64,000 bases of DNA from contig JBDRPX010000003.1 in the NCBI GenBank assembly GCA_043826565.1, forward strand, positions 81,293 to 145,292, given 5' to 3'. Under the pieces are notes generated by a model. That model did no database searches and was not told the DNA's origin. It saw only the letters and a list, made by a program, of their open reading frames with translations. The translations under genes and the position numbers were made by a program. Position 1 is the first letter of the stretch; each line of letters begins with the position of its first letter. This stretch comes from Candidatus Omnitrophota bacterium (lineage in GTDB: Bacteria; Omnitrophota; Gorgyraeia; B26-G9). This document shows positions 2 through 19,472 of this stretch, one piece after another.

Positions 2-3000
2 AAAAATAATGATTTACCGGGGATAATCTATGAGAACTTGCAGCAAGGCAGTCTTTTATTACAGAATTCTCCCAACAGTAATTTAATTCGGGCTTTGCGG
101 GTTGAGGTGAATAATTGTGAAGAGTTTTTTGATCCGAATCGCTACAAGATTTTTAATACCGCAATACACATATTTGAAGATAAACAGGAACAGGATGAAT
201 TTAGGGCTGAAAAGAATAAACAGCTGCTTTGCTTAAGACAATTAGAAGAAGGCAATTTACGTTTGTCTTTTGAAGACAATTCGGTGCATTTATTTTGGAA
301 AGGAGTTCAGCTTACGTCAAAGCAGGGTTTGCATACAGCGTTGATGTTAAATAATGAGTGGTTTGATTCTAGTAAATGTGAATGGAAAGTTGAGAGGATT
401 AACGATCAGTGTATATATATTAATATAGATTGGCGTCCTTTGCCGATAAAACAGACCTGGCAGGTGAATTTGATAAACGGCTATTCGTTTAGATGGCAGG
501 TTATTAATCATTTGAAAGATAACCGGGATGATCTGGTTAAGATTAAGACCTTGGGAGTGGTACTGCGTGCGGATTATCAAAAGTGGTTTGGCGGATATGA
601 GACTGGGGATTTCCCGAATAGTTTTGACCGCTGGCAGGAAATGATCAGTGATGTGCCGGATGGCGCGGTAGGAGTAAAACAATGTGCGGCATATCCGGCG
701 GTTATGCTTAAAAACGTTGCCGATAATCGCGCTGGGCTTATTGTTCAGAACGGCGATAATACTTCCGGATCCCGTCATTTGCAGGCTGTACAGGATGAGA
801 ATGATGGTAATTTCGCGCAGGAAATTTCAATTATCGAAGATGCTCAACAGGTAGATGACTATGTCCAGAAGCGAATGAATAATGAGATCATGCGTAATGG
901 TATCGGAATGGAACATTTGAAACTGCTTGCAGATAAGCAGAAGATCCGGGTCTTTTGGCAGGAGAAAGAACTAACTACGGATATCGGTTTGCATACGGCA
1001 ATACATTCTAGCGGATGCTGGTATGATTCCGGGAAAATGAAATGGCTGGTAAAAAAAATCACGGAAAAAAATCTGCAGATAACCGTGGATTTTAGTCCTT
1101 TTCCGGCGGTGCAGGTGTGGGATCTTTCGCTCGAGGGTAAAGATACTATAGATTGGGATGTTGAAATGGAGCTGAAAAATCCGGTGGAAATCGAAGAGCG
1201 TAAGGCCGGGATTATCCTGAATGGTGAATATACCCGCTGGTTTAATTCTTTCGAAGAGGGGATGTTTCCTGAAAAATTTGGTTTTTGGCACGATATCGTA
1301 CGTAATCGGGATGGGGAAACTTTCGGGACATATCCGCATAAAGATTTGCCGGGAGTTATGTTTTCCATCGATGCGAGCCATTTATCTCTTATCCAGAATG
1401 CTGATGAAAATATTAAAGGCAGAGTTTTGCAGGCGCAGATAGTCGAGGCAGAACAGACAAAGCAATATCCCGCCAAAAAGTTCTCTTGTTTTAAAGGGAA
1501 AATTAAGTTAGTAAAGGACGAAGGGGATATCGCGATATATAAACAAAACGCGCATCCGTTATTAGCCAAAGCAGAGGCTGTGTACATATATGGAGATTCT
1601 GCTGGTCTGCATGACCGGATTACCGGGGTTAAGGAATTTGATAAAAAGATTGAAATAATTGATGAGCTAAGAACTAAGGGGCAGGAGGTCCGGGTCGCGA
1701 TCGGCGTATCCCGCTACAATTTTTTTAAGCTTAACGAGATCGGACAGTTTGTGGCGGATAAGCTGGGGTATCCCCTAGATATGCGTTCGGTGCAGCTAAA
1801 TATATTTCCGTTAAAGAGACTGCGGAGAAATTTTATTGAATATTTAGATGAGTTAAAAAAATTACTTGGACAAATAGGGAATGTGGAATTGGTTCTTGCG
1901 GATAATGAACTGTTTGAATTGATCACTGCTGTTTGTTCTCAGGCGGATAGCGGGAATGAACGCCAATTACTGCGTTTGCTGGGGGTTATTAGTGAGCATG
2001 CGTTTATCGGCCCGCAGATTATTGTTATCGACCCCTTTCATCGCTGTAATGCCAACTGCGTGCATTGCTGGGTACATACTCCGGGAGTATTTCATCCGGA
2101 AGAGTTTTATGATATAAAACTAGATTTTGACCGGTTTAAATCAATTGCCGATGATCTGAGTGAGTTGCTGGTTGATCTGATCATCTTTCAAGGCGACGGA
2201 GAACCGTTATTGTATGATAAATTTTTTGATATGGTTCGATATGCCCGCAAAAAAGGCATCAAAGTGTCTTTTTTTACAAATGGGATTCTTCTGAATAAAG
2301 AGATTGCCAGGGAAGTTATTGATTTAGGGGTAGAGGAGATCTTTTGCAGTCTTCCGGCGGGAATTCCGGAGACGTTTGGAAAGATTAATACAAAACAAAA
2401 GCCGGAGATTTTAACGAAAATATTGGAAAATCTAAAATATCTTTCTGCTCTTAAGAAACAAGCCGGCAAAGAAAATCCCCGCTTGATCATGACTCATGTA
2501 ATTCATACGATGAATGCCCGAGAGCTTATGGCTATGGCTAAAAATGATATTGATATCGGGGCGGATATTGTTCGATTCTATCTTGTGCGCTTAGATGAAA
2601 ATATCGAATTCTTGAAATTAAAACCGGAAGATATAAAGGCAGTTCAGGATATTCTCCCTGAGATCAAAGAATTGTTTGAGAAAAATAATATTAAATTTCT
2701 TGATACAACCGAATTTCAATTGAATAATTTTGAGCAGGAAACCGGATCATGGTCTAAGAATGTATTTTTGGAAAATGGATGTACTTTGGGATGGAATTTC
2801 TGTTTAATCCCTGCTTCCGGAGAGGTTAGCTTTTGCTGTCACCTAAGAACGGTTGGTTTTTTGAATAAAAGTACATTTAAAGAGATATGGATTTCGCCGG
2901 AATATGACCGGTTTCGTTATCAGGCGAAGTTTTTAAATCAAAATAAAGATGCTAAGTTTCTTAACGGACATCCTTTGTTTGATGACTTCTGTGAGCATTG

Positions 3001-3079
3001 TGATACTCACCAGGTGATCAGGGATGTTTGGGATCAGTTTAAGCTTTATAATTTGGAAAGGTTTTTTCTTAAGAAATGA
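2..3079 (+). CDS. 5'-partial radical SAM/SPASM protein: two copies of a ~130-aa repeat domain N-terminal, rSAM core and C-terminal SPASM-like Cys cluster
   Basis: Frame is open to the window edge (ORF track starts at TTG 38, no upstream stop). CxxxCxxC motif 'HRCNANCVHC'. C-terminal 'CLIPASGEVSFCCH...DDFCEHCD' Cys cluster. Two internal repeats (~258-640 and ~940-1300) with conserved 'L(R)L.F....V.LFW...LT...GLHTA....W(Y/F)DS...W'. Confidence 0.7.
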   Translation, partial: KNNDLPGIIYENLQQGSLLLQNSPNSNLIRALRVEVNNCEEFFDPNRYKIFNTAIHIFEDKQEQDEFRAEKNKQLLCLRQLEEGNLRLSFEDNSVHLFWKGVQLTSKQGLHTALMLNNEWFDSSKCEWKVERINDQCIYINIDWRPLPIKQTWQVNLINGYSFRWQVINHLKDNRDDLVKIKTLGVVLRADYQKWFGGYETGDFPNSFDRWQEMISDVPDGAVGVKQCAAYPAVMLKNVADNRAGLIVQNGDNTSGSRHLQAVQDENDGNFAQEISIIEDAQQVDDYVQKRMNNEIMRNGIGMEHLKLLADKQKIRVFWQEKELTTDIGLHTAIHSSGCWYDSGKMKWLVKKITEKNLQITVDFSPFPAVQVWDLSLEGKDTIDWDVEMELKNPVEIEERKAGIILNGEYTRWFNSFEEGMFPEKFGFWHDIVRNRDGETFGTYPHKDLPGVMFSIDASHLSLIQNADENIKGRVLQAQIVEAEQTKQYPAKKFSCFKGKIKLVKDEGDIAIYKQNAHPLLAKAEAVYIYGDSAGLHDRITGVKEFDKKIEIIDELRTKGQEVRVAIGVSRYNFFKLNEIGQFVADKLGYPLDMRSVQLNIFPLKRLRRNFIEYLDELKKLLGQIGNVELVLADNELFELITAVCSQADSGNERQLLRLLGVISEHAFIGPQIIVIDPFHRCNANCVHCWVHTPGVFHPEEFYDIKLDFDRFKSIADDLSELLVDLIIFQGDGEPLLYDKFFDMVRYARKKGIKVSFFTNGILLNKEIAREVIDLGVEEIFCSLPAGIPETFGKINTKQKPEILTKILENLKYLSALKKQAGKENPRLIMTHVIHTMNARELMAMAKNDIDIGADIVRFYLVRLDENIEFLKLKPEDIKAVQDILPEIKELFEKNNIKFLDTTEFQLNNFEQETGSWSKNVFLENGCTLGWNFCLIPASGEVSFCCHLRTVGFLNKSTFKEIWISPEYDRFRYQAKFLNQNKDAKFLNGHPLFDDFCEHCDTHQVIRDVWDQFKLYNLERFFLKK
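258..640 (+). other. Copy 1 of unrecognised ~130-aa repeat domain (protein-level repeat)
   Basis: 'LRLSFEDNSVHLFWKGVQLTSKQGLHTALMLNNEWFDSSKCEWKVE...YQKWFGGYETGDFP' aligns with the three other copies at 940-1300, 5765-6130 and 7790-8160. Confidence 0.6.
940..1300 (+). other. Copy 2 of the repeat domain
   Basis: 'KIRVFWQEKELTTDIGLHTAIHSSGCWYDSGKMKWLVKK...YTRWFNSFEEGMFP'. Confidence 0.6.
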
Positions 3080-4062
3080 AGATTAAAATTGGCTGGCTAA
3101 AGAATAATACGAGATACAAACTTACTATAAAAGGAATCACACTGCTTTTTTTAAGCGGTGTTTTAGTCTCTTTTTTGATCGGTGAATTAATGGTGAGATT
3201 TTTTGTATCGTTTCCGATAAATAGAGAATATTTAAGGTTTGAATGTTTGGGGTATAAATTGATAAGTCAGAAGGCTAGAGATGCTCAGTTATTTTGGAAA
3301 CCGATTCCGGAATTTCGCGGCGAGTCATATCAGGAAAAAAAGGAAGACGGAGTTTTTCGGATCATTTGCATTGGAGATTCGGTAACGCAAAGTCATGGGA
3401 TAGACGGGTTCCCTCTGCCGAGGGAAAATACTTATGTTTTTTATTTGGAGAAGCTGTTAGAAAGTGGTTATGAAAATAAAAAATTTGAAGTGATTAATGC
3501 TGGGGTAGGAGGTTATAGCTCTTTACAGGGGGTGAGATATTTAGAAGGTAAATTGATCAAATATAACCCGGATTTAGTGATTAGCTGGTTTGGTATTAAT
3601 GACCGGGGACAGGCAGTATTTTATAATGATAAGCAACAGAAGCTGCCGCTTAAGGAAAGCTTAGAGAAAACAGGGGGAAGCAAATTATATAAATTTATAA
3701 AAAATTATTTTCTCATTATGCAGTATATGCCACGCGTATCTTACGGTGATTATTATGAAAATTGTGAGCAGATGCTGAAGTTATCTAAGAAAAATTATTT
3801 TGATATAGTATTTATTACTCCTTTTGAGGCTGATGTTCACGGCTCGTTAATATATTTAAATGATTATAAAGAAGCCTTGGAAAAACTAGCGGATAATTAT
3901 GATTCGACAGTATTAGATGTGCCCCCGTTTTTTAAATACAAGGCAAAGAATATGTTTATTGATTCTTGTCATCCGGACAAAGAAGGTAATACTGTTGTGG
4001 CCGAAACGATTTATACACTACTTAAAGAATCTGGTGTTTTTGATAAAATAAACTCCAATTGA
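3076..4062 (+). CDS. SGNH/GDSL-family hydrolase with N-terminal TM anchor
   Basis: Block I 'ICIGDSVTQS'. 'VINAGVGGYSS' (Gly block). C-terminal 'DSCHPDKEGNTVVAE' (DxxH catalytic block). ATGA overlap with upstream gene. Confidence 0.65.
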   Translation: MKIKIGWLKNNTRYKLTIKGITLLFLSGVLVSFLIGELMVRFFVSFPINREYLRFECLGYKLISQKARDAQLFWKPIPEFRGESYQEKKEDGVFRIICIGDSVTQSHGIDGFPLPRENTYVFYLEKLLESGYENKKFEVINAGVGGYSSLQGVRYLEGKLIKYNPDLVISWFGINDRGQAVFYNDKQQKLPLKESLEKTGGSKLYKFIKNYFLIMQYMPRVSYGDYYENCEQMLKLSKKNYFDIVFITPFEADVHGSLIYLNDYKEALEKLADNYDSTVLDVPPFFKYKAKNMFIDSCHPDKEGNTVVAETIYTLLKESGVFDKINSN

Positions 4063-4091
4063 TGCCCCAATGAACAAATAGGAAAATAAAG

Positions 4092-7000
4092 ATGAGAATA
4101 GTATTAGTAAATATACCGTGGAAAAAAGGAACCCGCTGGGGGGTCCGGGCCGGGTCCCGGTGGCCGCACATAAAGGACCGGACGGAAGATAATTATCTGG
4201 CTTTTCCGTTTTATTTGGCTTACGCCGCGGCTTTATTAAAGAAAAATAAATTTGAGGTGTTTATTATTGACGCAATTGCCGAACGGTTATCTTACAAAGA
4301 TTTTTTCCAAAAAGTAATTTCTTTAAAACCTGATTTACTTGTTGCCGAAACTTCGACTGTTTCTCTTAAGCATGACCTGAATTTTCTTTTGCGCTTAAAA
4401 GGCCTTGCCGAGGTTGCGATATGCGGGCCGGATGTGCACATCGCGGATCCCAAGTTTTTGCAGGAAACAAGTCAGGTTGACTATGTGCTTTTTGGCGAGT
4501 ATGAAGCTACCTTGCTGGAACTGGCGCAGACTTTAAGGGGGAACTATTGCAAAACGCCCATCTGCGGCGTTTCTTCCTCATTCGCTTGTGCGACGTCCGA
4601 CGAAAAGGACGCCTCCTCGCTCATTCGTCGAGGCCTTGCATCTGAACATTTTTCAATAGTCCCCGGAGACAGAAAATTGTTGGATAAAATTGACGGTCTG
4701 ATTTTTCGGGATAAAGGGAGGATTATTAAAAATAAGCCGCGTCCTTTAATTTCTGATCTTGATTGGCTTCCTTGGCCGATGCGCAAACAGCTTCCCATTA
4801 AACGTTATAATGATGCTCCGGGAGATATCCCGATTCCTTGTGCTTCGATGTGGGCCAGCCGGGGATGTCCGTTTAGGTGTTCTTTTTGCTTATGGCCGCA
4901 AGTAATGTATAACGGGAACAGCTATCGTACCAGAGATGTGAAGTCTGTTGTTGATGAGATGGAATATCTGATTAAGAAACTTGGCTTTAAATCAATTTAT
5001 TTTGATGATGATACGTGGAATATCGGAGAAGATCGGATTTACGCTTTTTGCGAAGAACTTAATAAAAGGGAATTGAATATCCCCTGGGCAATTATGGCCC
5101 GGGCCGAACTGATGGATGAAGCATTACTTGAAGCAATGCGTAAAGCAGGTTTATTTGCCGTTAAATACGGGATAGAGTCTTCTTCTCAGGAGATTTTGGA
5201 TAAGCTTGGCAAAGGTCTTGATCTGAAAAAAGCCGAAGAGGTAATTAAATACACAAAGTATTTAGGGATTAGAACGCATCTTACTTTTACATTCGGTTTG
5301 CCCGGAGAAACTCAACAATCAATACAAGATACAATCAATTATGCTCTTAAACTTAATCCTACATCAGTACAGTTTTCTATAGCCACTCCCTTTCCCGGAA
5401 CAAGGTTTTATGAAGAGATGGAAAAAAAAGGATACCTTTTAACCAAAGATCTGGAAAAATTTGACGGTAACCACAGCAGTGTGATCCGCACGGAGCATTT
5501 ATCAGGTAAACAGCTGCAAAAAGCTAAAAAAACAGCCTATGCCGAGTGGGATAAGCATTATCAATTGAAAAATAAAAAACTTTTTTTCAAGAATAAACCT
5601 TTAAAAGTAAAATTGATGAGTTCTTTAGTTGAACAGGGCGTGGTGCTTACGGCAATAAAAATTCTCAGATTTATAATCAGAAGAGTCTTTTTTTTTCCGT
5701 TACGGGTCAAACAGCTTTTTACCCGAAAGCTGTGGATTATTGAGGAGATTGTTGGGACAAGAGACTTAAGGCTTAAATTTGGAGAAGGCCGGGTTAAAGT
5801 TTTTTGGAAGGATAAAGAGATCAGTAAAGATGTCGGGTTGACGACTTCTTTACATTATGGGGATTGCTGGTTTGATTCAACCCAGGCGAATTGGAAGCTG
5901 GAAAAACAATCAGGGGATAAGATAAAAGTAAAATTAAAGTGGGACGAAGTCCCGGTCCGCCAGGAATGGGATATCGAGATTATTGAAGACCGGCAAATTA
6001 AGTGGGTAAGTACTCTGCAGGTGGAAAAAAGTGTGCAGTTACTTGAGTATAAGGCCGGGATAATGGTGTCGGATAGCTATACCAAGTGGAGAGATGATTT
6101 AGGAATTGGTAAATTCCCAAAGATTTCCGGGTGGGAGGAAATTGAATTATATAACTCCAATAGTGCGGTTTTAAGAGTAATCGCGGATGAAGGCAAAGGC
6201 GGAAAAACGGATCTTCCAGAACTGGAAATGCGCTCAGCTTGTGATTTAGAAAATAATACTTATCCGCAGATACAAAATACCGATTGTAAGATAAATGCCA
6301 GAATATTGCAGATGCGGAAATTGAAGATCGCCCAATTTACCCCGGGAGATTATAAGTATTTTGATTTGGAAATTGTAATAGAGAATAAGCAATTGGTTCC
6401 TCAGACCATAGATAAGTATAAGAAAAGAGTGCCGCTTCAATTTATAAAGGAACAGATATCGGCGGGCGGATTCTTCCCGGTTTTAATGAAAATATTAAAG
6501 CACTTACATCCCCGGCGATTAAGTGATTATTATTTGGATATTATCGGGGTTCTTGACGGCAGTTACGCGTATAAAGGCCCGTCTTTTGTTCAGATAGACC
6601 TTACCAATGATTGTAATAATGATTGCATCGGATGTTGGTGTAATTCGCCGCTTTTAGGTGATAAAAAAATCGACGATACGGTTAAACGCCAGACATTACC
6701 ATTTGAAACTGTAAAAAAGACTATTGATGAGCTAGCGGGAATGGGAACGAAGGAGATTTATTTTGCCGGAGGCGGAGAGCCGTTTATGCATCCAGAGATA
6801 TTGCCTATTCTCGAACATGTGAAAAAACGGAGATTGGGTTGTTATATAAATACAAATTTTACCCTGGTTAATGAGGATGTTGTAAAACGGTTAGCCGAAT
6901 TGAAAGTGGATAATCTGATTGTAAGTGTCTGGGCGGGTACTCCGGAAACTTATTGCTTGACCCATCCGAATAAATCCGAAGGCATGTTTTATCAGATTAA

Positions 7001-8423
7001 GGGCATGCTCAGGCTGCTGAGCACGCTTAAACAGGGCGTTCCGAATATTAATATTTATAATGTGATTTCCAATTTAAATTATCATGAGCTTGAGGAAATG
7101 GTTGAGTTTGCCGTAGATGCTCATGCTGATTCTTTGGAATTTACCGTAATTGATACTATCCCTAATGCTACAGACTCTCTTCTTTTAAGCGACCAACAGA
7201 GAAAAATAGTTTTAGAAAGTTGTCAAAGAATTCAGAAGAGATTGGAAGAGGATTTGAAAGGAAAAATAAAGGTTTTGCAATTTGAACAGTTTGTCCGCCG
7301 GATTGATACCCGGGATGCCCAAGAAGCAAAATACGATAAAAATATCCTGGAACAGATGCCGTGCTATATCGGATGGCTATTTGCCCGGATATTAGCTGAC
7401 GGAAATGTCAATTTTTGTCTTAAAAGCCATCGTATCCCGGTGGGGAATATTTACGCGCAGGATTTTTCTGATATATGGAACAGTCAGCGGCAGCAGGAAT
7501 TCCGAAAACGATCTTTATGCGCAGATAAGAATGACGTGTTTTTTTCTTTTATCGGAAATGATCCAAATGTAAAGGTGGGGTGCTTTAAAAGCTGTGATGA
7601 TTTAGCGCGTAATGTGAGGATGCATAAGAAGCTTCAGTCTCTTACGTTTTGGGAATTAAAATTTTTAAGCCGTGTTTTATTTTTCAAGAAGCTGCAGAAA
7701 GCTTTCCGCAATAAGAAATTAGGCCAGGTAATTCGCTCTCAGATAAAAAAACGTCAATTAACCGCGGGCAAACACTTATCCCGCGGAGATTTAAGGCTGG
7801 AGAGCCATAGCGATGGGATCAAACTATATTGGGCCGATAGACAATTAACCGAGAGTGTGGGGCTCAATAGTTCCGTATGTATATTTGGATTATGGTATGA
7901 CTCATCGAAGGCAGAATGGGAAATCAAGAAACACACCGATACTGAGATTATTATAAAAAACGTCTGGCATAAAATTCCTATCGCGCAAAACTGGGAATTG
8001 AAGGTAAAGCAAGGGAATGTGGTTAGCTGGAATATTAATTTGTCTGTTGAGTCTAAAATTGAGATAGAAGAGACTAAAACAAGTATAATGCTTTCATCGG
8101 ATTACCGTAAGTGGCAGACGCAGAAGGAACAGGGGAAGTTTCCTTTGCTTTCCTTTTGGAATGAAGCGGATATTAATGATTTATCAGTTAAGAATGTCGG
8201 GGTAGCCAGAAGTAAGGGGAAAGGGGGCTTTCGCCCGGGGATAGATCTTAATTTTTCAGATATGTCCGGGGATACGCGTCCTCAGATACAAAATGCGGAT
8301 AAAAGTATTAATGCCCGGATTATTTCCGCCCGGTGTGTTGAGAATAATGGTGGAAAAGTATTTTTGCCTGGGGAATATAAAATTTTTTCCGGGGAAATAG
8401 TGATAAGGTCTGACGATGTCTAA
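4092..8423 (+). CDS. 1443-aa multidomain fusion: B12-binding domain + rSAM, repeat domain, second rSAM with SPASM-like cluster, repeat domain
   Basis: N-terminal 'MRIVLVNIPW...GSRWP...FEVFIIDA' (B12/Rossmann-like). First CxxxCxxC 'CPFRCSFC'. Second CxxxCxxC 'NDCNNDCIGCW' with 'FAGGGEPF'. Downstream Cys cluster 'MPCYIGW...NFCLKSH'. Repeat copies at ~5765-6130 and ~7790-8160. Confidence 0.75.
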   Translation: MRIVLVNIPWKKGTRWGVRAGSRWPHIKDRTEDNYLAFPFYLAYAAALLKKNKFEVFIIDAIAERLSYKDFFQKVISLKPDLLVAETSTVSLKHDLNFLLRLKGLAEVAICGPDVHIADPKFLQETSQVDYVLFGEYEATLLELAQTLRGNYCKTPICGVSSSFACATSDEKDASSLIRRGLASEHFSIVPGDRKLLDKIDGLIFRDKGRIIKNKPRPLISDLDWLPWPMRKQLPIKRYNDAPGDIPIPCASMWASRGCPFRCSFCLWPQVMYNGNSYRTRDVKSVVDEMEYLIKKLGFKSIYFDDDTWNIGEDRIYAFCEELNKRELNIPWAIMARAELMDEALLEAMRKAGLFAVKYGIESSSQEILDKLGKGLDLKKAEEVIKYTKYLGIRTHLTFTFGLPGETQQSIQDTINYALKLNPTSVQFSIATPFPGTRFYEEMEKKGYLLTKDLEKFDGNHSSVIRTEHLSGKQLQKAKKTAYAEWDKHYQLKNKKLFFKNKPLKVKLMSSLVEQGVVLTAIKILRFIIRRVFFFPLRVKQLFTRKLWIIEEIVGTRDLRLKFGEGRVKVFWKDKEISKDVGLTTSLHYGDCWFDSTQANWKLEKQSGDKIKVKLKWDEVPVRQEWDIEIIEDRQIKWVSTLQVEKSVQLLEYKAGIMVSDSYTKWRDDLGIGKFPKISGWEEIELYNSNSAVLRVIADEGKGGKTDLPELEMRSACDLENNTYPQIQNTDCKINARILQMRKLKIAQFTPGDYKYFDLEIVIENKQLVPQTIDKYKKRVPLQFIKEQISAGGFFPVLMKILKHLHPRRLSDYYLDIIGVLDGSYAYKGPSFVQIDLTNDCNNDCIGCWCNSPLLGDKKIDDTVKRQTLPFETVKKTIDELAGMGTKEIYFAGGGEPFMHPEILPILEHVKKRRLGCYINTNFTLVNEDVVKRLAELKVDNLIVSVWAGTPETYCLTHPNKSEGMFYQIKGMLRLLSTLKQGVPNINIYNVISNLNYHELEEMVEFAVDAHADSLEFTVIDTIPNATDSLLLSDQQRKIVLESCQRIQKRLEEDLKGKIKVLQFEQFVRRIDTRDAQEAKYDKNILEQMPCYIGWLFARILADGNVNFCLKSHRIPVGNIYAQDFSDIWNSQRQQEFRKRSLCADKNDVFFSFIGNDPNVKVGCFKSCDDLARNVRMHKKLQSLTFWELKFLSRVLFFKKLQKAFRNKKLGQVIRSQIKKRQLTAGKHLSRGDLRLESHSDGIKLYWADRQLTESVGLNSSVCIFGLWYDSSKAEWEIKKHTDTEIIIKNVWHKIPIAQNWELKVKQGNVVSWNINLSVESKIEIEETKTSIMLSSDYRKWQTQKEQGKFPLLSFWNEADINDLSVKNVGVARSKGKGGFRPGIDLNFSDMSGDTRPQIQNADKSINARIISARCVENNGGKVFLPGEYKIFSGEIVIRSDDV
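4560..4660 (+). repeat. GC-rich ~100-bp in-frame insert within the B12-domain region, with internal inverted repeat (cgacgaa/ttcgtcg) and direct repeat (ctcattcg)
   Basis: Local GC is far above surroundings. Encodes 'CGVSSSFACATSDEKDASSLIRRGLASEHFS' between 'KTPI' and 'IVPGDRK...GLIFRDKGRII'. The equivalent loop in the other seven B12-rSAM paralogs here is short. Confidence 0.4.
5765..6130 (+). other. Copy 3 of the repeat domain
   Basis: 'LRLKFGEGRVKVFWKDKEISKDVGLTTSLHYGDCWFDSTQANWKLEK...YTKWRDDLGIGKFP'. Confidence 0.6.
7790..8160 (+). other. Copy 4 of the repeat domain
   Basis: 'LRLESHSDGIKLYWADRQLTESVGLNSSVCIFGLWYDSSKAEWEIKK...YRKWQTQKEQGKFP'. Confidence 0.6.
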
Positions 8424-10068
8424 AATAATAATTATTAGCAGTCCTCCCTGGGGAATTGTAATGCCGCCGTTAGGTATGGCTTATCTTGCCACTTATCTTA
8501 AATCTAAAGGGATTGTTCCGGAAATATATGATTTAAATTTGCAGTTGTATGAACAAGCGGATCAACAGCAAGAGCATTTTTGGGATTTGGATACGATCAA
8601 TAAATTTTTGCCTGTGGATATTGCTCATAATTTGTTTGCTGCTTTTGAAGATACTTTAGGGGATGTTGTAAAAAAGCTTGTTAATTATGATATTGTTGGT
8701 TTTTCCGCGAATAATCTTATTAGTACAACTTTTGCCGGTATTATGGGTACTCAAATAAAAAATATTTCGCCGAAGACTAAAATCATTTTAGGCGGTCCGG
8801 GATGTTTTCATAGTTGGGATCGGAAAGCTGTACCAAAAGATGCGGTTGATTTCTTTATTATCGGGGAAGGGGAAGAGGCCTTATATCGGCTGATTATGGC
8901 CATAGATGAAGGTGACGAACAGCGAGAAATTCCCGGGGTGATTTGTTGCGCGGCCGGAGATAGAAAAAGATTTTATCCGCCGGAGCCGGTAAAAAATCTG
9001 GATGTCATTCCGTTTCCGACATTCGAAGAATTTGATGTAAGTAAGTACAGTTATGGAAAAAAATACCGGCCGCTGCCGATGCTTACCAGCCGGGGCTGTA
9101 TTAATCAATGCGCGTATTGTATAGACTGTTATATGTCCGCACCTTTTCGGGCCCGGAGCCCGGAACAGGTAGTTTCTCAAATAAGCTATTATAAAAAACA
9201 TTACGGGATAACTCATGTTGAGTTTAATGATTTATTATGTAATGGTAATTTAATCCGGCTGGAAAAACTTTGTGATCAATTGATCGAGGCGGAACTTAAT
9301 ATAAATTGGATTAGTTATGCGGCAATAAGAAGAAAAATGAATTCTCAGTTGCTTGAGAAAATGAGAAAAGCCGGATGTACATCTTTATGTTTTGGGGTTG
9401 AAAGCGGTTCGGATAGTGTATTAGCGCGAATGAATAAGCATTATATAAGAGCCGAGGCTAGTGCCTTGCTTAAAAAAACCCATGAGGCAGGAATTACCGC
9501 ACGCCTTAATTTAATTGTCGGTTTCCCCGGGGAAACCGAAGAGAATTTTCAGCAGACACTTGATTTTATTAAGGATAATATGGCATCTATCAGTCAGGTA
9601 ACAAATGTCTCGTCTTTTGTGCTTATGCCCGGATCGGATATCGGGATTTATCCTTACCGGTTTGGGGTGAAGTTTTTAGATCCGCTTGATCCCGGAATTT
9701 GGACAGATGAATTCGGGCTTACTCAGCAGGAGCGCAATAACCGGGTGGCTCGGGCCTGCCGGTTACTGGAAGAATTAAATATTCCTAACCTGATTATCAA
9801 TTATCAAAGCAAGACTCAAGACGCAAGACTCAAGACGCAAGACTCAAGACTCAAGACGCAAGACTCAAGACCCAAGACTCAAGACGCAAGACCCAAGACG
9901 CAAGACGCAAAACTCAAGACTCAAGTTGTTGTCAGAACATTTAATCGTGATAGATTAGTAAGTAAGATAATAAAGCTTATTTTTCTGTTTGTTTTTAGCT
10001 TAATTATTGATATTTATCTATTTTTATTAAAAAAAATCAGAGGTTCGATCATATTTCCGGGAAACTGA
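8416..10068 (+). CDS. B12-binding-domain radical SAM protein with C-terminal heptad low-complexity tail and TM helix
   Basis: N-terminal 'IIISSPPWGIVMPPLGMAYLATYLKSKG' (B12 domain). 'LTSRGCINQCAYCIDC' CxxxCxxC. C-terminal 'KTQDARLKTQDSRLKTQDSRPKTQDARPKTQDAKLKTQ' then hydrophobic 'IIKLIFLFVFSLIIDIYLFLL'. Confidence 0.8.
   Translation: MSKIIIISSPPWGIVMPPLGMAYLATYLKSKGIVPEIYDLNLQLYEQADQQQEHFWDLDTINKFLPVDIAHNLFAAFEDTLGDVVKKLVNYDIVGFSANNLISTTFAGIMGTQIKNISPKTKIILGGPGCFHSWDRKAVPKDAVDFFIIGEGEEALYRLIMAIDEGDEQREIPGVICCAAGDRKRFYPPEPVKNLDVIPFPTFEEFDVSKYSYGKKYRPLPMLTSRGCINQCAYCIDCYMSAPFRARSPEQVVSQISYYKKHYGITHVEFNDLLCNGNLIRLEKLCDQLIEAELNINWISYAAIRRKMNSQLLEKMRKAGCTSLCFGVESGSDSVLARMNKHYIRAEASALLKKTHEAGITARLNLIVGFPGETEENFQQTLDFIKDNMASISQVTNVSSFVLMPGSDIGIYPYRFGVKFLDPLDPGIWTDEFGLTQQERNNRVARACRLLEELNIPNLIINYQSKTQDARLKTQDSRLKTQDSRPKTQDARPKTQDAKLKTQVVVRTFNRDRLVSKIIKLIFLFVFSLIIDIYLFLLKKIRGSIIFPGN
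9810..9925 (+). repeat. Tandem 7-bp repeat (caagacN) x ~16 inside the coding sequence
   Basis: Read directly: caagact caagacg caagact caagacg caagact caagact caagacg ... Unit length 7 is not a multiple of 3, giving a 7-aa protein periodicity. Confidence 0.9.
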
Positions 10069-10166
10069 ACAACAGAAGACAGAGGTCAGAATATGAAGAA
10101 TGAAATTTTTTATTATCTGTCATCTGTCATCTGTTTTCTGTCTTCAAACTTCTGTGGGGTACAGCA
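10069..10166 (+). repeat. Intergenic element: inverted repeat gaagacag...ctgtcttc flanking a 7-bp tandem repeat (tctgtNN x4); potential long RNA hairpin
   Basis: 'cagaagacagaggtcag...tctgtcatctgtcatctgttttctgtcttc'; gaagacag is the exact reverse complement of ctgtcttc. Confidence 0.6.
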
Positions 10167-10170
10167 ATGA
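10093..10170 (+). CDS. Candidate small ORF, 25 aa: MKNEIFYYLSSVICFLSSNFCGVQQ
   Basis: ATG preceded by GAGGT 6 nt upstream. Stop TGA overlaps the ATG of the next gene (ATGA coupling). 3 Cys, hydrophobic. Lies within the heptamer/hairpin element, so it may be non-coding. Confidence 0.3.
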   Translation: MKNEIFYYLSSVICFLSSNFCGVQQ

Positions 10171-11321
10171 ATATTCTAATGGTTCATCCGCATGATGTAT
10201 TCTCCCAAGAAGAGCCGTGGACGGTTCGGATCAAGAATATTGCCGCGGAATTTAAAAAAAAACATCATCAGGTAAAAATTGTTTACTTCCCTCTGAGATT
10301 TCCAGCACATCAACAGGAGTTTTCGGTAGAAGGAGTTGAGTATATTCCCTTGAGCCGCCGTTTAGGCATACGTTTGTATATTCGTAATATTAAGAAAATG
10401 ATCGAACTCTGCGGCTGGGCTGATATTGTGCACTTTCAGAAGTGTTTTTATTATGCGGCATTGCCGGCATTAATCGGTGCGTTTATAAAACATAAGCCGG
10501 TGCATTATGATTGGGATGATTGGGAAATTAAAATTTTCCATTACAGTTGCTCTCAGCCATGGCTTGTCGGTACATTTCTGGCGGCTTTGGAAAGGTTTAT
10601 GCCGGCAATTTGCGATAGCGTTTCTGTTTCCAGTTATCGTTTGCGGGAAGAATGTATCCGTTATGGAGTGGCTCCGGAGAGAATAGCCATGGCTCCGGTA
10701 GGAGCTGATTTAAAATTATTTCATCCGGAAGTTTCCGGGGTGCGCGTACGTGAACGGTTTAATATTGAAGGGCCATTGGTGATTTATCTCGGACAGCTTC
10801 ATGGAGGCCAGTATGTTGAGCAATTTATTAAAGCTTCCAAGATAGTTCTAAATAAATCATGGCCGGTTAAATTCATGATCGTCGGAGACGGATATAGACT
10901 AAAGGAGTTAAAGGATATGGCTGACAAACTGGACTTAACTGATAAATTAATATTTACCGGTCCGGTTCCGCATCGGGAGGCTCCGTTATATTTGGCTGCT
11001 GCGGATATCGCGGTAGCCTGTTTTGAGGATAATGATATTACCCGGTGTAAAAGTCCTCTGAAAATCGCCGAATATTTGGCCAGTGGAAAACCTATTGTGG
11101 CCAGTAATGTAGGAGAAGTTAAACGAATGCTTGGTGGCGCCGGGGTTGTAACTTTACCTGGCGATGTGCAAAATCTTGCCGAGGGAATTACAAAGCTTCT
11201 CGATGATGAGCTGTTACGGAAACGTTTGAGAGTAAAAGCCAGAGCAAGGGCGGAAGAAATTTATAATTGGGCGATTACTTCAGAAAATTTGCTTAATATT
11301 TATAGTAAGCATTTTATTTAA
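10167..11321 (+). CDS. GT4-family glycosyltransferase
   Basis: C-terminal 'KIAEYLASGKPIVASNVGEV' (GT4 E-x7-E region), 384 aa GT-B-like length. Confidence 0.65.
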   Translation: MNILMVHPHDVFSQEEPWTVRIKNIAAEFKKKHHQVKIVYFPLRFPAHQQEFSVEGVEYIPLSRRLGIRLYIRNIKKMIELCGWADIVHFQKCFYYAALPALIGAFIKHKPVHYDWDDWEIKIFHYSCSQPWLVGTFLAALERFMPAICDSVSVSSYRLREECIRYGVAPERIAMAPVGADLKLFHPEVSGVRVRERFNIEGPLVIYLGQLHGGQYVEQFIKASKIVLNKSWPVKFMIVGDGYRLKELKDMADKLDLTDKLIFTGPVPHREAPLYLAAADIAVACFEDNDITRCKSPLKIAEYLASGKPIVASNVGEVKRMLGGAGVVTLPGDVQNLAEGITKLLDDELLRKRLRVKARARAEEIYNWAITSENLLNIYSKHFI

Positions 11322-13225: not shown

Positions 13226-14166
13226 AAAAAATATCAATAATAGTACCTGTTTTTAATGAGAGGGATAACTTGGCGGAGTTGAATAAAAAACTAGTCAGTG
13301 TTTTATCGAGATTGGATATGGAGAATGAAATAATTTATGTGGATGATGGTAGTAATGACGGTAGTGCGGATATCTTGAATGAGATACCTGATAAGTATAA
13401 TAATGTTAGAGTTATAACTTTAGCGAAAAATTTCGGGCAGACCCAGGCGATTTCTGCAGGGGTGGACAATTCAGACGGCGATGTTATCATTACTATTGAT
13501 GCTGATCTTCAAAATGATCCGGAAGATATCCCGGCTTTATTAGCTAAACTTAAAGAGGGCTATGATATGGTCAGCGGCTGGAGAGTGAATCGTCAAGATA
13601 ATTTATTGTTTAAAAAGATACCCTCGGCTATTGCTAATCGCATAAGTTCTTTATTGACGAATGTTAATGTCCATGATTTGGGATGTACATTAAAAGTTTA
13701 TAAACGCACAGTATTAGAAGATATTGATTATTATGGTGAAATCCATAGATTTTTGCCGGTTTTTGCGGCTATGCACGGAGCGACGATTGCGGAAATTCCC
13801 GTAAAACATCATAAGAGAAAAAATGGGAAGTCAAAGTACGGGTTATCAAGAATTTATAAAGTAATTCTTGATATGTTTACGATCATGTTTATGTGGAAAT
13901 TTTTAACCAGGCCGGTATATCTTTTCGGAGGCCTGGGAATGATTTCTTTGGGGTTTGCTTCTTTTACGGCTTTGTTTGTTGTAATTAGAAAAATGTTTTT
14001 CGGCGGGGTTTGGGTAAGTCCGCTTTTATTTCTTTTTGTTGTATTTTCTACAATGGGAATTCAGTTTATTCTTATGGGGGTTCTCGGAGAACTTATTATC
14101 CGGCTCTATTATGGTGCGCGTGACCAAAAACGATATAAGATTAAAAGAGTAGAGAGTAGCAAGTAG
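13219..14166 (+). CDS. GT2 polyprenyl-phosphate sugar synthase (ArnC/GtrB/DPM1-like) with C-terminal TM helices
   Basis: 'ISIIVPVFNERDNL'. 'YVDDGSNDGS'. 'TIDADLQNDPEDIP'. 'VSGWR'. Two C-terminal hydrophobic helices. Confidence 0.8.
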   Translation: MVKKISIIVPVFNERDNLAELNKKLVSVLSRLDMENEIIYVDDGSNDGSADILNEIPDKYNNVRVITLAKNFGQTQAISAGVDNSDGDVIITIDADLQNDPEDIPALLAKLKEGYDMVSGWRVNRQDNLLFKKIPSAIANRISSLLTNVNVHDLGCTLKVYKRTVLEDIDYYGEIHRFLPVFAAMHGATIAEIPVKHHKRKNGKSKYGLSRIYKVILDMFTIMFMWKFLTRPVYLFGGLGMISLGFASFTALFVVIRKMFFGGVWVSPLLFLFVVFSTMGIQFILMGVLGELIIRLYYGARDQKRYKIKRVESSK

Positions 14167-14193
14167 AGAGAAGAAAAAATAAAAGATGTTTTA

Positions 14194-14227
14194 ACTTGGG
14201 ACTTGAGACTTGTGGCTTGAGACTGGA
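14194..14227 (+). repeat. Intergenic 7-bp tandem repeat (acttgNg x ~4.5)
   Basis: 'acttggg acttgag acttgtg gcttgag actgg' between the stop at 14166 and the start at 14233. Confidence 0.7.
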
Positions 14228-19407: not shown

Positions 19408-19432
19408 CTTTGTCTGCCGTAGGCAGACAAAG
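19408..19432 (+). terminator. Perfect 11-bp stem / 3-nt loop hairpin directly after the stop codon (no U-tract)
   Basis: ctttgtctgcc-gta-ggcagacaaag. Followed by 'gagtagagagtagc', which also occurs at 14147. Confidence 0.4.
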
Positions 19433-19472
19433 AGCAGCGAGTAGAGAGTAGCTAGAAAAGAGAAAAGCAGAG

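Follow-up and report, generated by a model that had tools for sequence, protein, structure and literature searches.

Between a gene for a B12-binding radical S-adenosylmethionine (rSAM) protein and a gene for a GT4 glycosyltransferase, a 64,000-nucleotide stretch of the genome of a Candidatus Omnitrophota bacterium (hereafter, the window) contains an intercistronic spacer of 98 nt (10069..10166), which is the subject of this analysis. The upstream gene (8416..10068, + strand) encodes a 550-aa protein with the B12-binding and Radical_SAM domains of Pfam and a tail that is conserved in more than 20 orthologues. The downstream gene (10167..11321, + strand) has a Met-Asn start and matches the Pfam families Glycos_transf_1 and Glyco_transf_4, and its orthologues align from residue 1.

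A first-pass annotation, made from the sequence alone, had placed the spacer between genes of these two types, in agreement with the Pfam domains, and described three features in it, all of which are present. The first is a 25-codon open reading frame (ORF; 10093..10170, + strand), taken from the ORF list with its translation, MKNEIFYYLSSVICFLSSNFCGVQQ. It is preceded by the Shine-Dalgarno (SD)-like word GAGGT (10082-10086), 6 nt 5' of the ATG (10093-10095), and its TGA (10168-10170) overlaps the GT4 ATG at 10167, forming an ATGA (10167-10170). The second is an inverted repeat, gaagacag (10075-10082) and ctgtcttc (10138-10145), recovered in a pair search, and the third is a fourfold tctgtNN tandem repeat. 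The ORF was tentatively interpreted as a Cys-containing substrate of the surrounding rSAM enzymes or as a leader peptide coupled to the GT4 gene; alternatively, the region was taken to be purely an RNA structural element (a terminator or processing site). Here we argue that the spacer is probably a lineage-specific hairpin of heptanucleotide simple-sequence repeats (SSR), within which the ORF is incidental.

Heptamer arrays and the predicted RNA hairpin

The tandem repeat detected by Tandem Repeats Finder (TRF; period 7, 4.0 copies, 85% matches, 10115-10142) is part of a larger unit that comprises the entire spacer. The 98 nt separating the rSAM stop from the GT4 start correspond to exactly 14 heptamers, namely, acaacag, aagacag, aggtcag, aatatga, agaatga, aattttt, and tattatc, followed by tgtcatc, tgtcatc, tgttttc, tgtcttc, aaacttc, tgtgggg, and tacagca. 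The self-match of the spacer at lag 7 is 0.56, which is above the values of all 3000 dinucleotide-preserving shuffles (mean 0.264, sd 0.047, maximum 0.418), and the self-match at lag 14 is likewise raised (0.45). Thus, head-to-tail 7-nt copies run on for longer than expected by chance, the defining property of a heptanucleotide SSR.

The spacer is composed of a CAGARNN array and its inverted complement, a TCTGTNN array. The purine-rich left arm (CAGAAGA, CAGAGGT, CAGAATA; 10073..10093, + strand) holds the SD-like GAGGT, and the right arm identified with TRF (TCTGTCA, TCTGTCA, TCTGTTT, TCTGTCT, an interposed TCAAACT, and TCTGTGG; 10116..10157, + strand) is the inverted complement of the left one. 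A 19-nt pattern taken from the right arm matches the minus strand of the left arm with 3 mismatches of 19, where 0.01 matches are expected by chance. No further copy of this pattern with up to 3 mismatches was found outside the element within the window, and on this basis we rejected the idea that the spacer is a dispersed repeat of the miniature inverted-repeat transposable element (MITE) or repetitive extragenic palindrome (REP) type. Because the arms match each other and have no copy elsewhere in the 64 kb, the element is interpreted as two inverted heptamer arrays rather than a member of a dispersed family.

Folding of the spacer RNA, proposed in the first-pass annotation, yielded a predicted 72-nt stem-loop (10067..10138, + strand; dG -27.1 kcal/mol, z = -4.22), and none of 200 shuffled sequences folded equally well. 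The antisense strand folds less stably (-20.5 kcal/mol, z = -2.1), a difference to be expected if G-U pairing contributes in RNA. The significance of the fold drops when a 161-nt context is considered (z = -1.6), which marks the signal as local. Given the 7-nt period of each arm, pairing is possible in more than one register, with at least two identified (inverted-repeat pairs I2 and I3). The stop codon of the rSAM gene (10066-10068) abuts the hairpin, 1 nt before the stem, and both the SD-like word and the AUG of the small ORF are base-paired in the minimum free energy (MFE) and centroid structures.

A stable hairpin straight after a stop codon could serve the rSAM-GT4 junction as an intrinsic terminator or attenuator, but its features make this extremely improbable. 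There is no U-tract 3' of the stem (following sequence, CUUCAAACUUCUGUGGGG; the tail is CUUCAAACUU), and the stem itself is AU/GU-rich. A consensus terminator scan gave no hit at 10067-10150, and no promoter-like or terminator-like site was called on the + strand of the spacer. A single hairpin dominates, with no terminator/antiterminator pair or alternative antiterminator fold found, and only 28 nt separate the hairpin from the GT4 gene, which belongs to a long series of co-directional genes. Known RNA families do not account for the structure either: no Rfam family matched anywhere in the window at gathering thresholds, and a permissive scan of 9700-10400 (E <= 10) returned only sub-threshold noise (best 30 bits vs 94), mostly eukaryotic miRNA and snoRNA models and one tmRNA model. 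Thus, of the proposal that the spacer is an RNA structural element, the stem-loop part is the best supported of the three initial suggestions and the terminator part fails.

Related junctions and the spread of heptamer arrays

To compare the spacer across relatives, all of which are metagenome-assembled genomes (MAGs) of Omnitrophota or of the Planctomycetes-Verrucomicrobia-Chlamydiae (PVC) group, we assembled a synteny set of 23 distinct rSAM-GT4 junctions, including that of the window. Because the relatives all belong to these groups, an early impression, prompted by the repeats, that the DNA is cyanobacterial was discarded. The organism itself was found by exact look-ups in one public sample only (SRR26275510), for which the Logan assembly has the same sequence throughout the region. 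Among the 23 junctions, the distance from the rSAM stop to the GT4 start varies from 1 to 857 nt. It is short in one group (1, 2, 2, 2, 3, 3, 3, 8, 13, 13, and 19 nt) and long in the other (42, 56, 78, 98 in the window, 99, 110, 134, 169, 431, 443, 606, and 857 nt), and gaps of 19 nt or less occur at 11-12 of the 23 junctions, close relatives among them. For the relatives at 68-73% identity, the gaps are 42 nt (L002), 3 nt (L082 and L083), 19 nt (L165), 2 nt (L166, after correction of the called start), and 1 nt (L167). The orthologues keep neither the hairpin nor the reading frame, because the whole spacer is lineage-specific, and no related peptide ORF was detected at the syntenic junctions. 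Judging from these comparisons, the ancestral junction was tight, and the spacer was inserted into it specifically in this lineage.

Several of the junctions that are expanded in other loci also contain heptamer arrays, unrelated in sequence to the window spacer. These arrays consist of GCAAGCT-type units with their inverted complement in L003, where they form a two-armed hairpin (dG -32, z about -1.9); AGCGATT in L004; about 17 purine-rich units, one-armed and unstructured, in L005; AGCTCAT in L011; and TAGCGNN in L014.

Within the window, there are four arrays (at 9810, 10115, 14146/14194, and 19429), three intergenic and one in an in-frame linker, all identified with TRF. The longest (9810..9925, + strand) consists of 16.6 copies of CAAGACT (CAAGACT/G/C), lies in frame within the linker of the rSAM gene, and encodes KTQDARL-type 7-aa repeats; as RNA, it is unstructured (z = +4.3). 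At 14146..14224 (+ strand), four AGAGTAG units are followed by 4.4 ACTTGAG units, with a spacer lag-7 self-match of 0.58 and a weak hairpin (z = -2.2); these arrays span the end of a GT2 gene and the spacer before a carbamoyltransferase gene, and ACTTGAG is reverse-complementary at 6 of 7 bases to the CAAGACT unit located 4 kb upstream. At 19408..19472 (+ strand; fold z = -3.5), a perfect 11-bp hairpin, ctttgtctgcc-gta-ggcagacaaag, directly follows the stop codon of a radical SAM/SPASM gene, and the five AG-rich heptamers after it (AGCAGCG, AGTAGAG, AGTAGCT, AGAAAAG, and AGAAAAG) extend to the next start codon.

The same periodicity is seen in bulk. Intergenic autocorrelation peaks at lags 7, 14, and 21 in the window (0.329) and in the close clade (0.312) against a background of about 0.27, and this excess is absent from coding DNA and from distant loci. 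When arrays were counted as stretches of 35 nt whose lag-7 self-match reached 66% or more, there were 3 in 64 kb of the window, 7 in 162 kb of the close clade, and 3 in 936 kb of distant relatives, that is, an approximately 13-fold higher density in the window and close clade than in the distant relatives. Period 7 stands out in this respect: across lags 5-11, the census gives 0-3 arrays per set, with no comparable excess. Period-7 repeats are thus enriched in a sub-lineage-specific manner, with several arrays per genome region. A separate observation concerns period 9: the repeat ATGATTGGG, reported by TRF in two copies at 10507-10525, reflects the conserved D-W-D-D-W motif in GT4 and is no repeat element of the DNA, and this site recurs in about 160 loci and inflates period-9 counts in repeat censuses.

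Taken together, these results suggest a scenario for the origin of the spacer. Most plausibly, the CAGARNN array and the inverted TCTGTNN array grew by replication slippage at a junction that in the relatives is tightly coupled (1-19 nt) and that links a membrane-anchored B12-radical-SAM gene to a GT4 gene. Because the neighbouring genes are all on the + strand and separated by short gaps, the spacer is likely to be transcribed within a long same-strand glycan operon. In the transcript, the two arms would pair to form the stem-loop of about 72 nt, which, if it acts at all, would separate and uncouple the two cistrons; by analogy with REP hairpins, its effect may be a modest protection of the upstream message or a modest damping of translational coupling. 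The element would be prone to change in 7-nt steps. The small ORF would be a by-product: the repeat is free of stops, the purine arm supplies an SD-like word and an ATG, and the Met-Asn start of GT4 supplies the TGA.

The rSAM-GT4 junction is also an insertion hot spot, at which different loci share conserved blocks of 100-200 nt. In the blocks examined (L006 4557-5001; L008 4143-5001; L007/L085 and L010; L084/L163), L006 and L008 have in common ggagggcaggaataattatttaggcgggtttgaagcctgattttgatagg...ccggaccgccttcgata, L007 and L010 share aactttgtgaaagatg...cacaaatttaggtaaat, and L084 and L008 share aaaaacacNtcttttNgctaagcc...; the L084 block has a very stable fold (antisense z = -6.0). No Rfam family matched at gathering thresholds in eight related loci, and the shared blocks may be MITEs or noncoding RNAs (ncRNAs) of no known family.

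The boundary of the rSAM gene next to the spacer was examined in the same loci. The C-terminal tail of the protein consists of a variable linker and a transmembrane (TM) helix, followed by ...LKKIRGSIIFPGN and the stop codon. In all syntenic loci, the rSAM ORF runs through the variable linker into a conserved TM helix and a ...LKKIRGSIIFPG[SNT] C-terminus. Because this tail is conserved across the syntenic loci, the long 3' end of ORF 8416..10068 is real, and the possibility that the extension through the repeat is an artefact was ruled out by conservation of the TM tail and of the KKIRGSIIFPG motif. The tail and motif, located after a hypervariable linker, are carried by the window (9926-10068), L002-L016, L030, L082-L091, and L165-L167. 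In L038 and L041, the gene is split, and its tail is encoded by an ORF of its own (about 95 aa) that lies between rSAM and GT4.

The 25-codon ORF

Most likely, the small ORF is a chance reading frame and not a gene. Its core, LSSVICFLSS, is a successive three-frame reading of (TCTGTCA)n: TCT-GTC-ATC-TGT-CAT-CTG-TCA translates as S-V-I-C-H-L-S, so that the Cys/Ser-rich, hydrophobic character of the peptide is dictated by the DNA repeat. The repeat is stop-free in every sense frame, and a further ORF, of 31 aa (10100..10195), crosses it in a different frame. The open frame and the SD-like word thus both originate from the repeat itself. NTGA is found at the GT4 start codon in 23 of 24 orthologous loci, being derived from the conserved Met-Asn/Lys N-terminus, and therefore, any ORF in that frame ends at the GT4 start. 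The ATGA overlap belongs to the conserved start of GT4, not to the small ORF.

The first of the initial suggestions was that the peptide is functional, either as a precursor of a ribosomally synthesized and post-translationally modified peptide (RiPP), processed by the nearby radical SAM/SPASM enzymes, or as a small membrane protein. Radical SAM/SPASM maturases are known to act on RiPP precursors such as sactipeptides, ranthipeptides, and SCIFF (six cysteines in forty-five residues) peptides, and the resemblance consists of a short ORF, with two Cys and an SD-like motif, in a region rich in radical SAM genes. Furthermore, the best NCBIfam match of the adjacent rSAM protein is a RiPP C-methyltransferase model (TIGR03975), albeit far below the cut-off (148 vs 281.85 bits); phosphonate, hopanoid, and lipid B12-rSAM models score lower and are also sub-threshold. 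Unlike a RiPP precursor, however, the ORF is not co-conserved with the enzyme: the rSAM-GT4 pair occurs in more than 20 loci that lack the peptide ORF and often have no room for one, which implies that the pair does not need the peptide. A tblastn search with the peptide found nothing at the syntenic position in related loci, and the peptide had no NCBIfam match at E <= 0.01. Pfam detects no RRE (RiPP recognition element) or PqqD domain in the neighbouring enzymes, and neither a SPASM nor an RRE domain in the adjacent rSAM protein itself. The sequence of the peptide is set by the DNA repeat, and its SD and AUG are sequestered in the hairpin. The gene content of the cluster (GT4, GT2, PMT_2, carbamoyltransferase, and DegT aminotransferase) points to the chemistry of glycans, not of peptides. 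With no counterpart at the 23 junctions, the functional-peptide reading is largely refuted by synteny and is, in our view, highly improbable; the peptide is very probably not a functional product.

The cluster also encodes very large fused radical SAM proteins (38-8423), one of 1443 aa, with a B12-binding domain, an rSAM domain, a second rSAM domain, and a SPASM module, and another of 1013 aa, with rSAM and SPASM. The genes for these fused proteins stand first in a series of co-directional genes (glycosyltransferase, PMT_2, and rSAM) that covers at least the first 29 kb examined. All NCBIfam matches are far below the family cut-offs.

Several observations weigh against the interpretation of the spacer as a repeat hairpin with an incidental ORF. 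The anti-SD duplex of the ORF (-6.5 kcal/mol) is stronger than the median of the 45 genes of the window (-5.3 kcal/mol) and ranks in the top 8% of all ATGs. Among the shuffled spacers, an ATG-initiated ORF of 20 aa or more occurs in 25% when any frame is allowed and in 6.2% when it has to be in the ATGA frame, but just 0.6% combine such an ORF with an SD-like motif and the ATGA frame, a figure that is post hoc and was obtained against a null in which the stop-free, purine-rich repeat is lost. L005, a second heptamer-bearing junction, also has an ATG ORF that ends at an ATGA. No relative closer than 73% GT4 identity was found in genome contigs, metagenome contigs, or a 5.8-billion-protein index, and at this distance, a species-specific small protein or a bridging ORF would not be revealed by conservation. 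Finally, any effect of the hairpin at the mRNA level is something that we only infer.

Some of these observations bear on another reading, in which the act of translating 10093-10170 matters and the peptide itself does not. Ribosomes ending at the rSAM UGA (10066-10068) would melt the base of the hairpin and expose the GAGGT and the AUG, translation of the short ORF would unwind the rest of the stem and stop at the AUGA, and GT4 would be re-initiated there. Such a relay would restore the tight coupling that gaps of 1-19 nt give the relatives. Translationally coupled short ORFs and leader peptides, acting by ATGA termination-reinitiation or as leaders of the erm and trp type, share with the present case a short SD-preceded ORF, a start sequestered in a hairpin, and a stop that overlaps the next start. 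The position of the rSAM stop 1 nt before the stem that contains the SD and AUG fits this sequence of events, as do the SD strength of the ORF and the rarity of its combined features among the shuffles; the bridging ORF of L005 encodes 28 aa of unrelated, hydrophilic sequence, as expected if only translation matters. Nevertheless, a purine-rich repeat without stops is enough to generate the features of the ORF, and, of the three frames, one will in any case terminate at the conserved NTGA. No bridging ORF is present at 5 of the 7 expanded junctions (L002, L003, L004, L011, and L014), and the other heptamer spacers of the window (about 65 nt) have no such ORF. The GT4 start has anti-SD complementarity of its own (-6.0 kcal/mol), a value close to that of the ORF, and the argument that GT4 lacks an SD and hence needs a relay was dropped. 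Unlike the known leaders, the ORF shows no conservation, no alternative terminator/antiterminator structures, and no regulatory codon pattern, and the ATGA here belongs to the conserved N-terminus of the downstream gene. We therefore regard the relay as unlikely. As for the original suggestion of a leader, its attenuator part does not hold, given that there is no terminator/antiterminator pair, and its coupling part is weakened by the assignment of the ATGA to the GT4 start.

Relation to known repeat systems

The reading that we prefer, a heptanucleotide SSR hairpin, places the element in a known class of repeats. The cyanobacterial arrays of short tandemly repeated repetitive (STRR) sequences are heptanucleotide long SSRs. 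According to Mrazek et al. (2007), as related in PMC4679880, heptanucleotide repeats are the most abundant class of long SSRs in most genomes rich in 5-11-nt repeats and are linked to slippage. MacGregor (2015; PMC4679880) reports arrays of TAACTGA that precede start codons in Beggiatoaceae, Cyanobacteria, and Bacteroidetes and mentions 169 direct sets of repeats and only one indirect repeat. The Omnitrophota arrays resemble the STRR and TAACTGA arrays in consisting of tandem 7-nt units (from 3 to over 16 copies) that are located mainly between genes and in many cases a short way 5' of start codons, with several arrays per genome, a patchy, lineage-specific spread, and a presumed origin by slippage. 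They differ in that the unit changes at every site, with no dominant heptamer, and, unlike the TAACTGA arrays, they include inverted pairs that form hairpins (10069-10166, 14146-14224, and L003). Our literature searches found no description of heptamer repeats in Omnitrophota. The element is thus a heptanucleotide SSR of a known class, in a phylum that is new for it, and its inverted-array hairpin form is less usual.

The REP and bacterial interspersed mosaic element (BIME) palindromes, intercistronic elements of enterobacteria reportedly described in the 1980s by Higgins, Newbury and colleagues, offer another parallel. Like these, the spacer is an imperfect palindrome within an operon, presumably co-transcribed, present or absent between orthologous junctions, and plausibly a stabiliser of the upstream mRNA segment; unlike them, it is built of 7-nt tandem units and, within the 64 kb, belongs to no dispersed consensus family.

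The location upstream of a start codon might also mean that the heptamers are bound by a regulator that recognises specific RNA or DNA sequences, such as an S1, Csp, or CsrA-like protein. Units of an AGNAGNN-like, purine-rich type are found repeatedly, in three of the window spacers and in L005, and comparable proposals have been made for the TAACTGA repeats of Beggiatoaceae (PMC4679880) and for the heptamers of Nostoc, for which regulatory effects of repeats near start codons are discussed (bioRxiv 10.1101/2022.06.06.494920). The roles assigned in these precedents are themselves speculative. Contrary to what is expected of binding sites, the unit differs from array to array (CAAGACT, CAGAAGA, AGAGTAG, and ACTTGAG in the window; GCAAGCT, AGCTCAT, and AGCGATT in the relatives), with no single motif of the TAACTGA kind, and no candidate binding protein was identified. 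A binding array is accordingly very unlikely.

A further interpretation, suggested by the gene context, is that of a contingency (phase-variation) locus, in which 7-nt slippage would alter the length and register of the hairpin and the frame of the short ORF and, in the sister array at 9810-9925, would change the rSAM frame and thus stochastically switch genes for surface-glycan modification. SSR-driven switching of glycosyltransferase and other surface genes is established in Haemophilus, Neisseria, Campylobacter, and Moraxella, according to PMC12721329 and PMC4679880. As in those loci, the unit length is not a multiple of three, and arrays of 4 to 16.6 units lie in, beside, or just upstream of genes of the glycan cluster. 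In simulations, adding or removing one or two units at 9810-9925 shifts the frame and truncates the rSAM protein at 504-518 aa, before the TM tail, and a change of three units retains the tail. An independent Logan contig ends inside this array, although a break within a repeat is expected of short k-mer assembly regardless of polymorphism. In contrast to the established contingency loci, the units are imperfect (85-87% matches), which lowers slippage rates, and the organism is an uncultured environmental bacterium, not a host-adapted pathogen. Its occurrence in a single public sample makes copy-number polymorphism unobservable. We consider phase variation by these arrays quite unlikely, and slightly more doubtful still the specific proposal that a one-unit change, by shifting the frame of the relay ORF or removing the membrane anchor of the rSAM protein, acts as a switch for reversible variation of surface glycans. 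If true, it would imply stochastic, reversible glycan variation in an uncultured, possibly host-associated nanobacterium.

The preferred reading, repeat arrays with an incidental ORF, has practical consequences for annotation. Next to radical SAM genes, heptamer repeats that contain no stops can take on the appearance of RiPP-like mini-ORFs with an SD and Cys codons, and the ORF at 10093-10170 should not be annotated as a gene. Heptamer arrays are also a practical cause of assembly breaks, as illustrated by the Logan contig end within the 9810 array. For the biology of the Omnitrophota, the finding is that STRR-like arrays occur in one sub-lineage, both where genes of an operon meet and within the linker of a gene, and, if these arrays slip, they would provide a simple route to variable surface glycans in this uncultured group.

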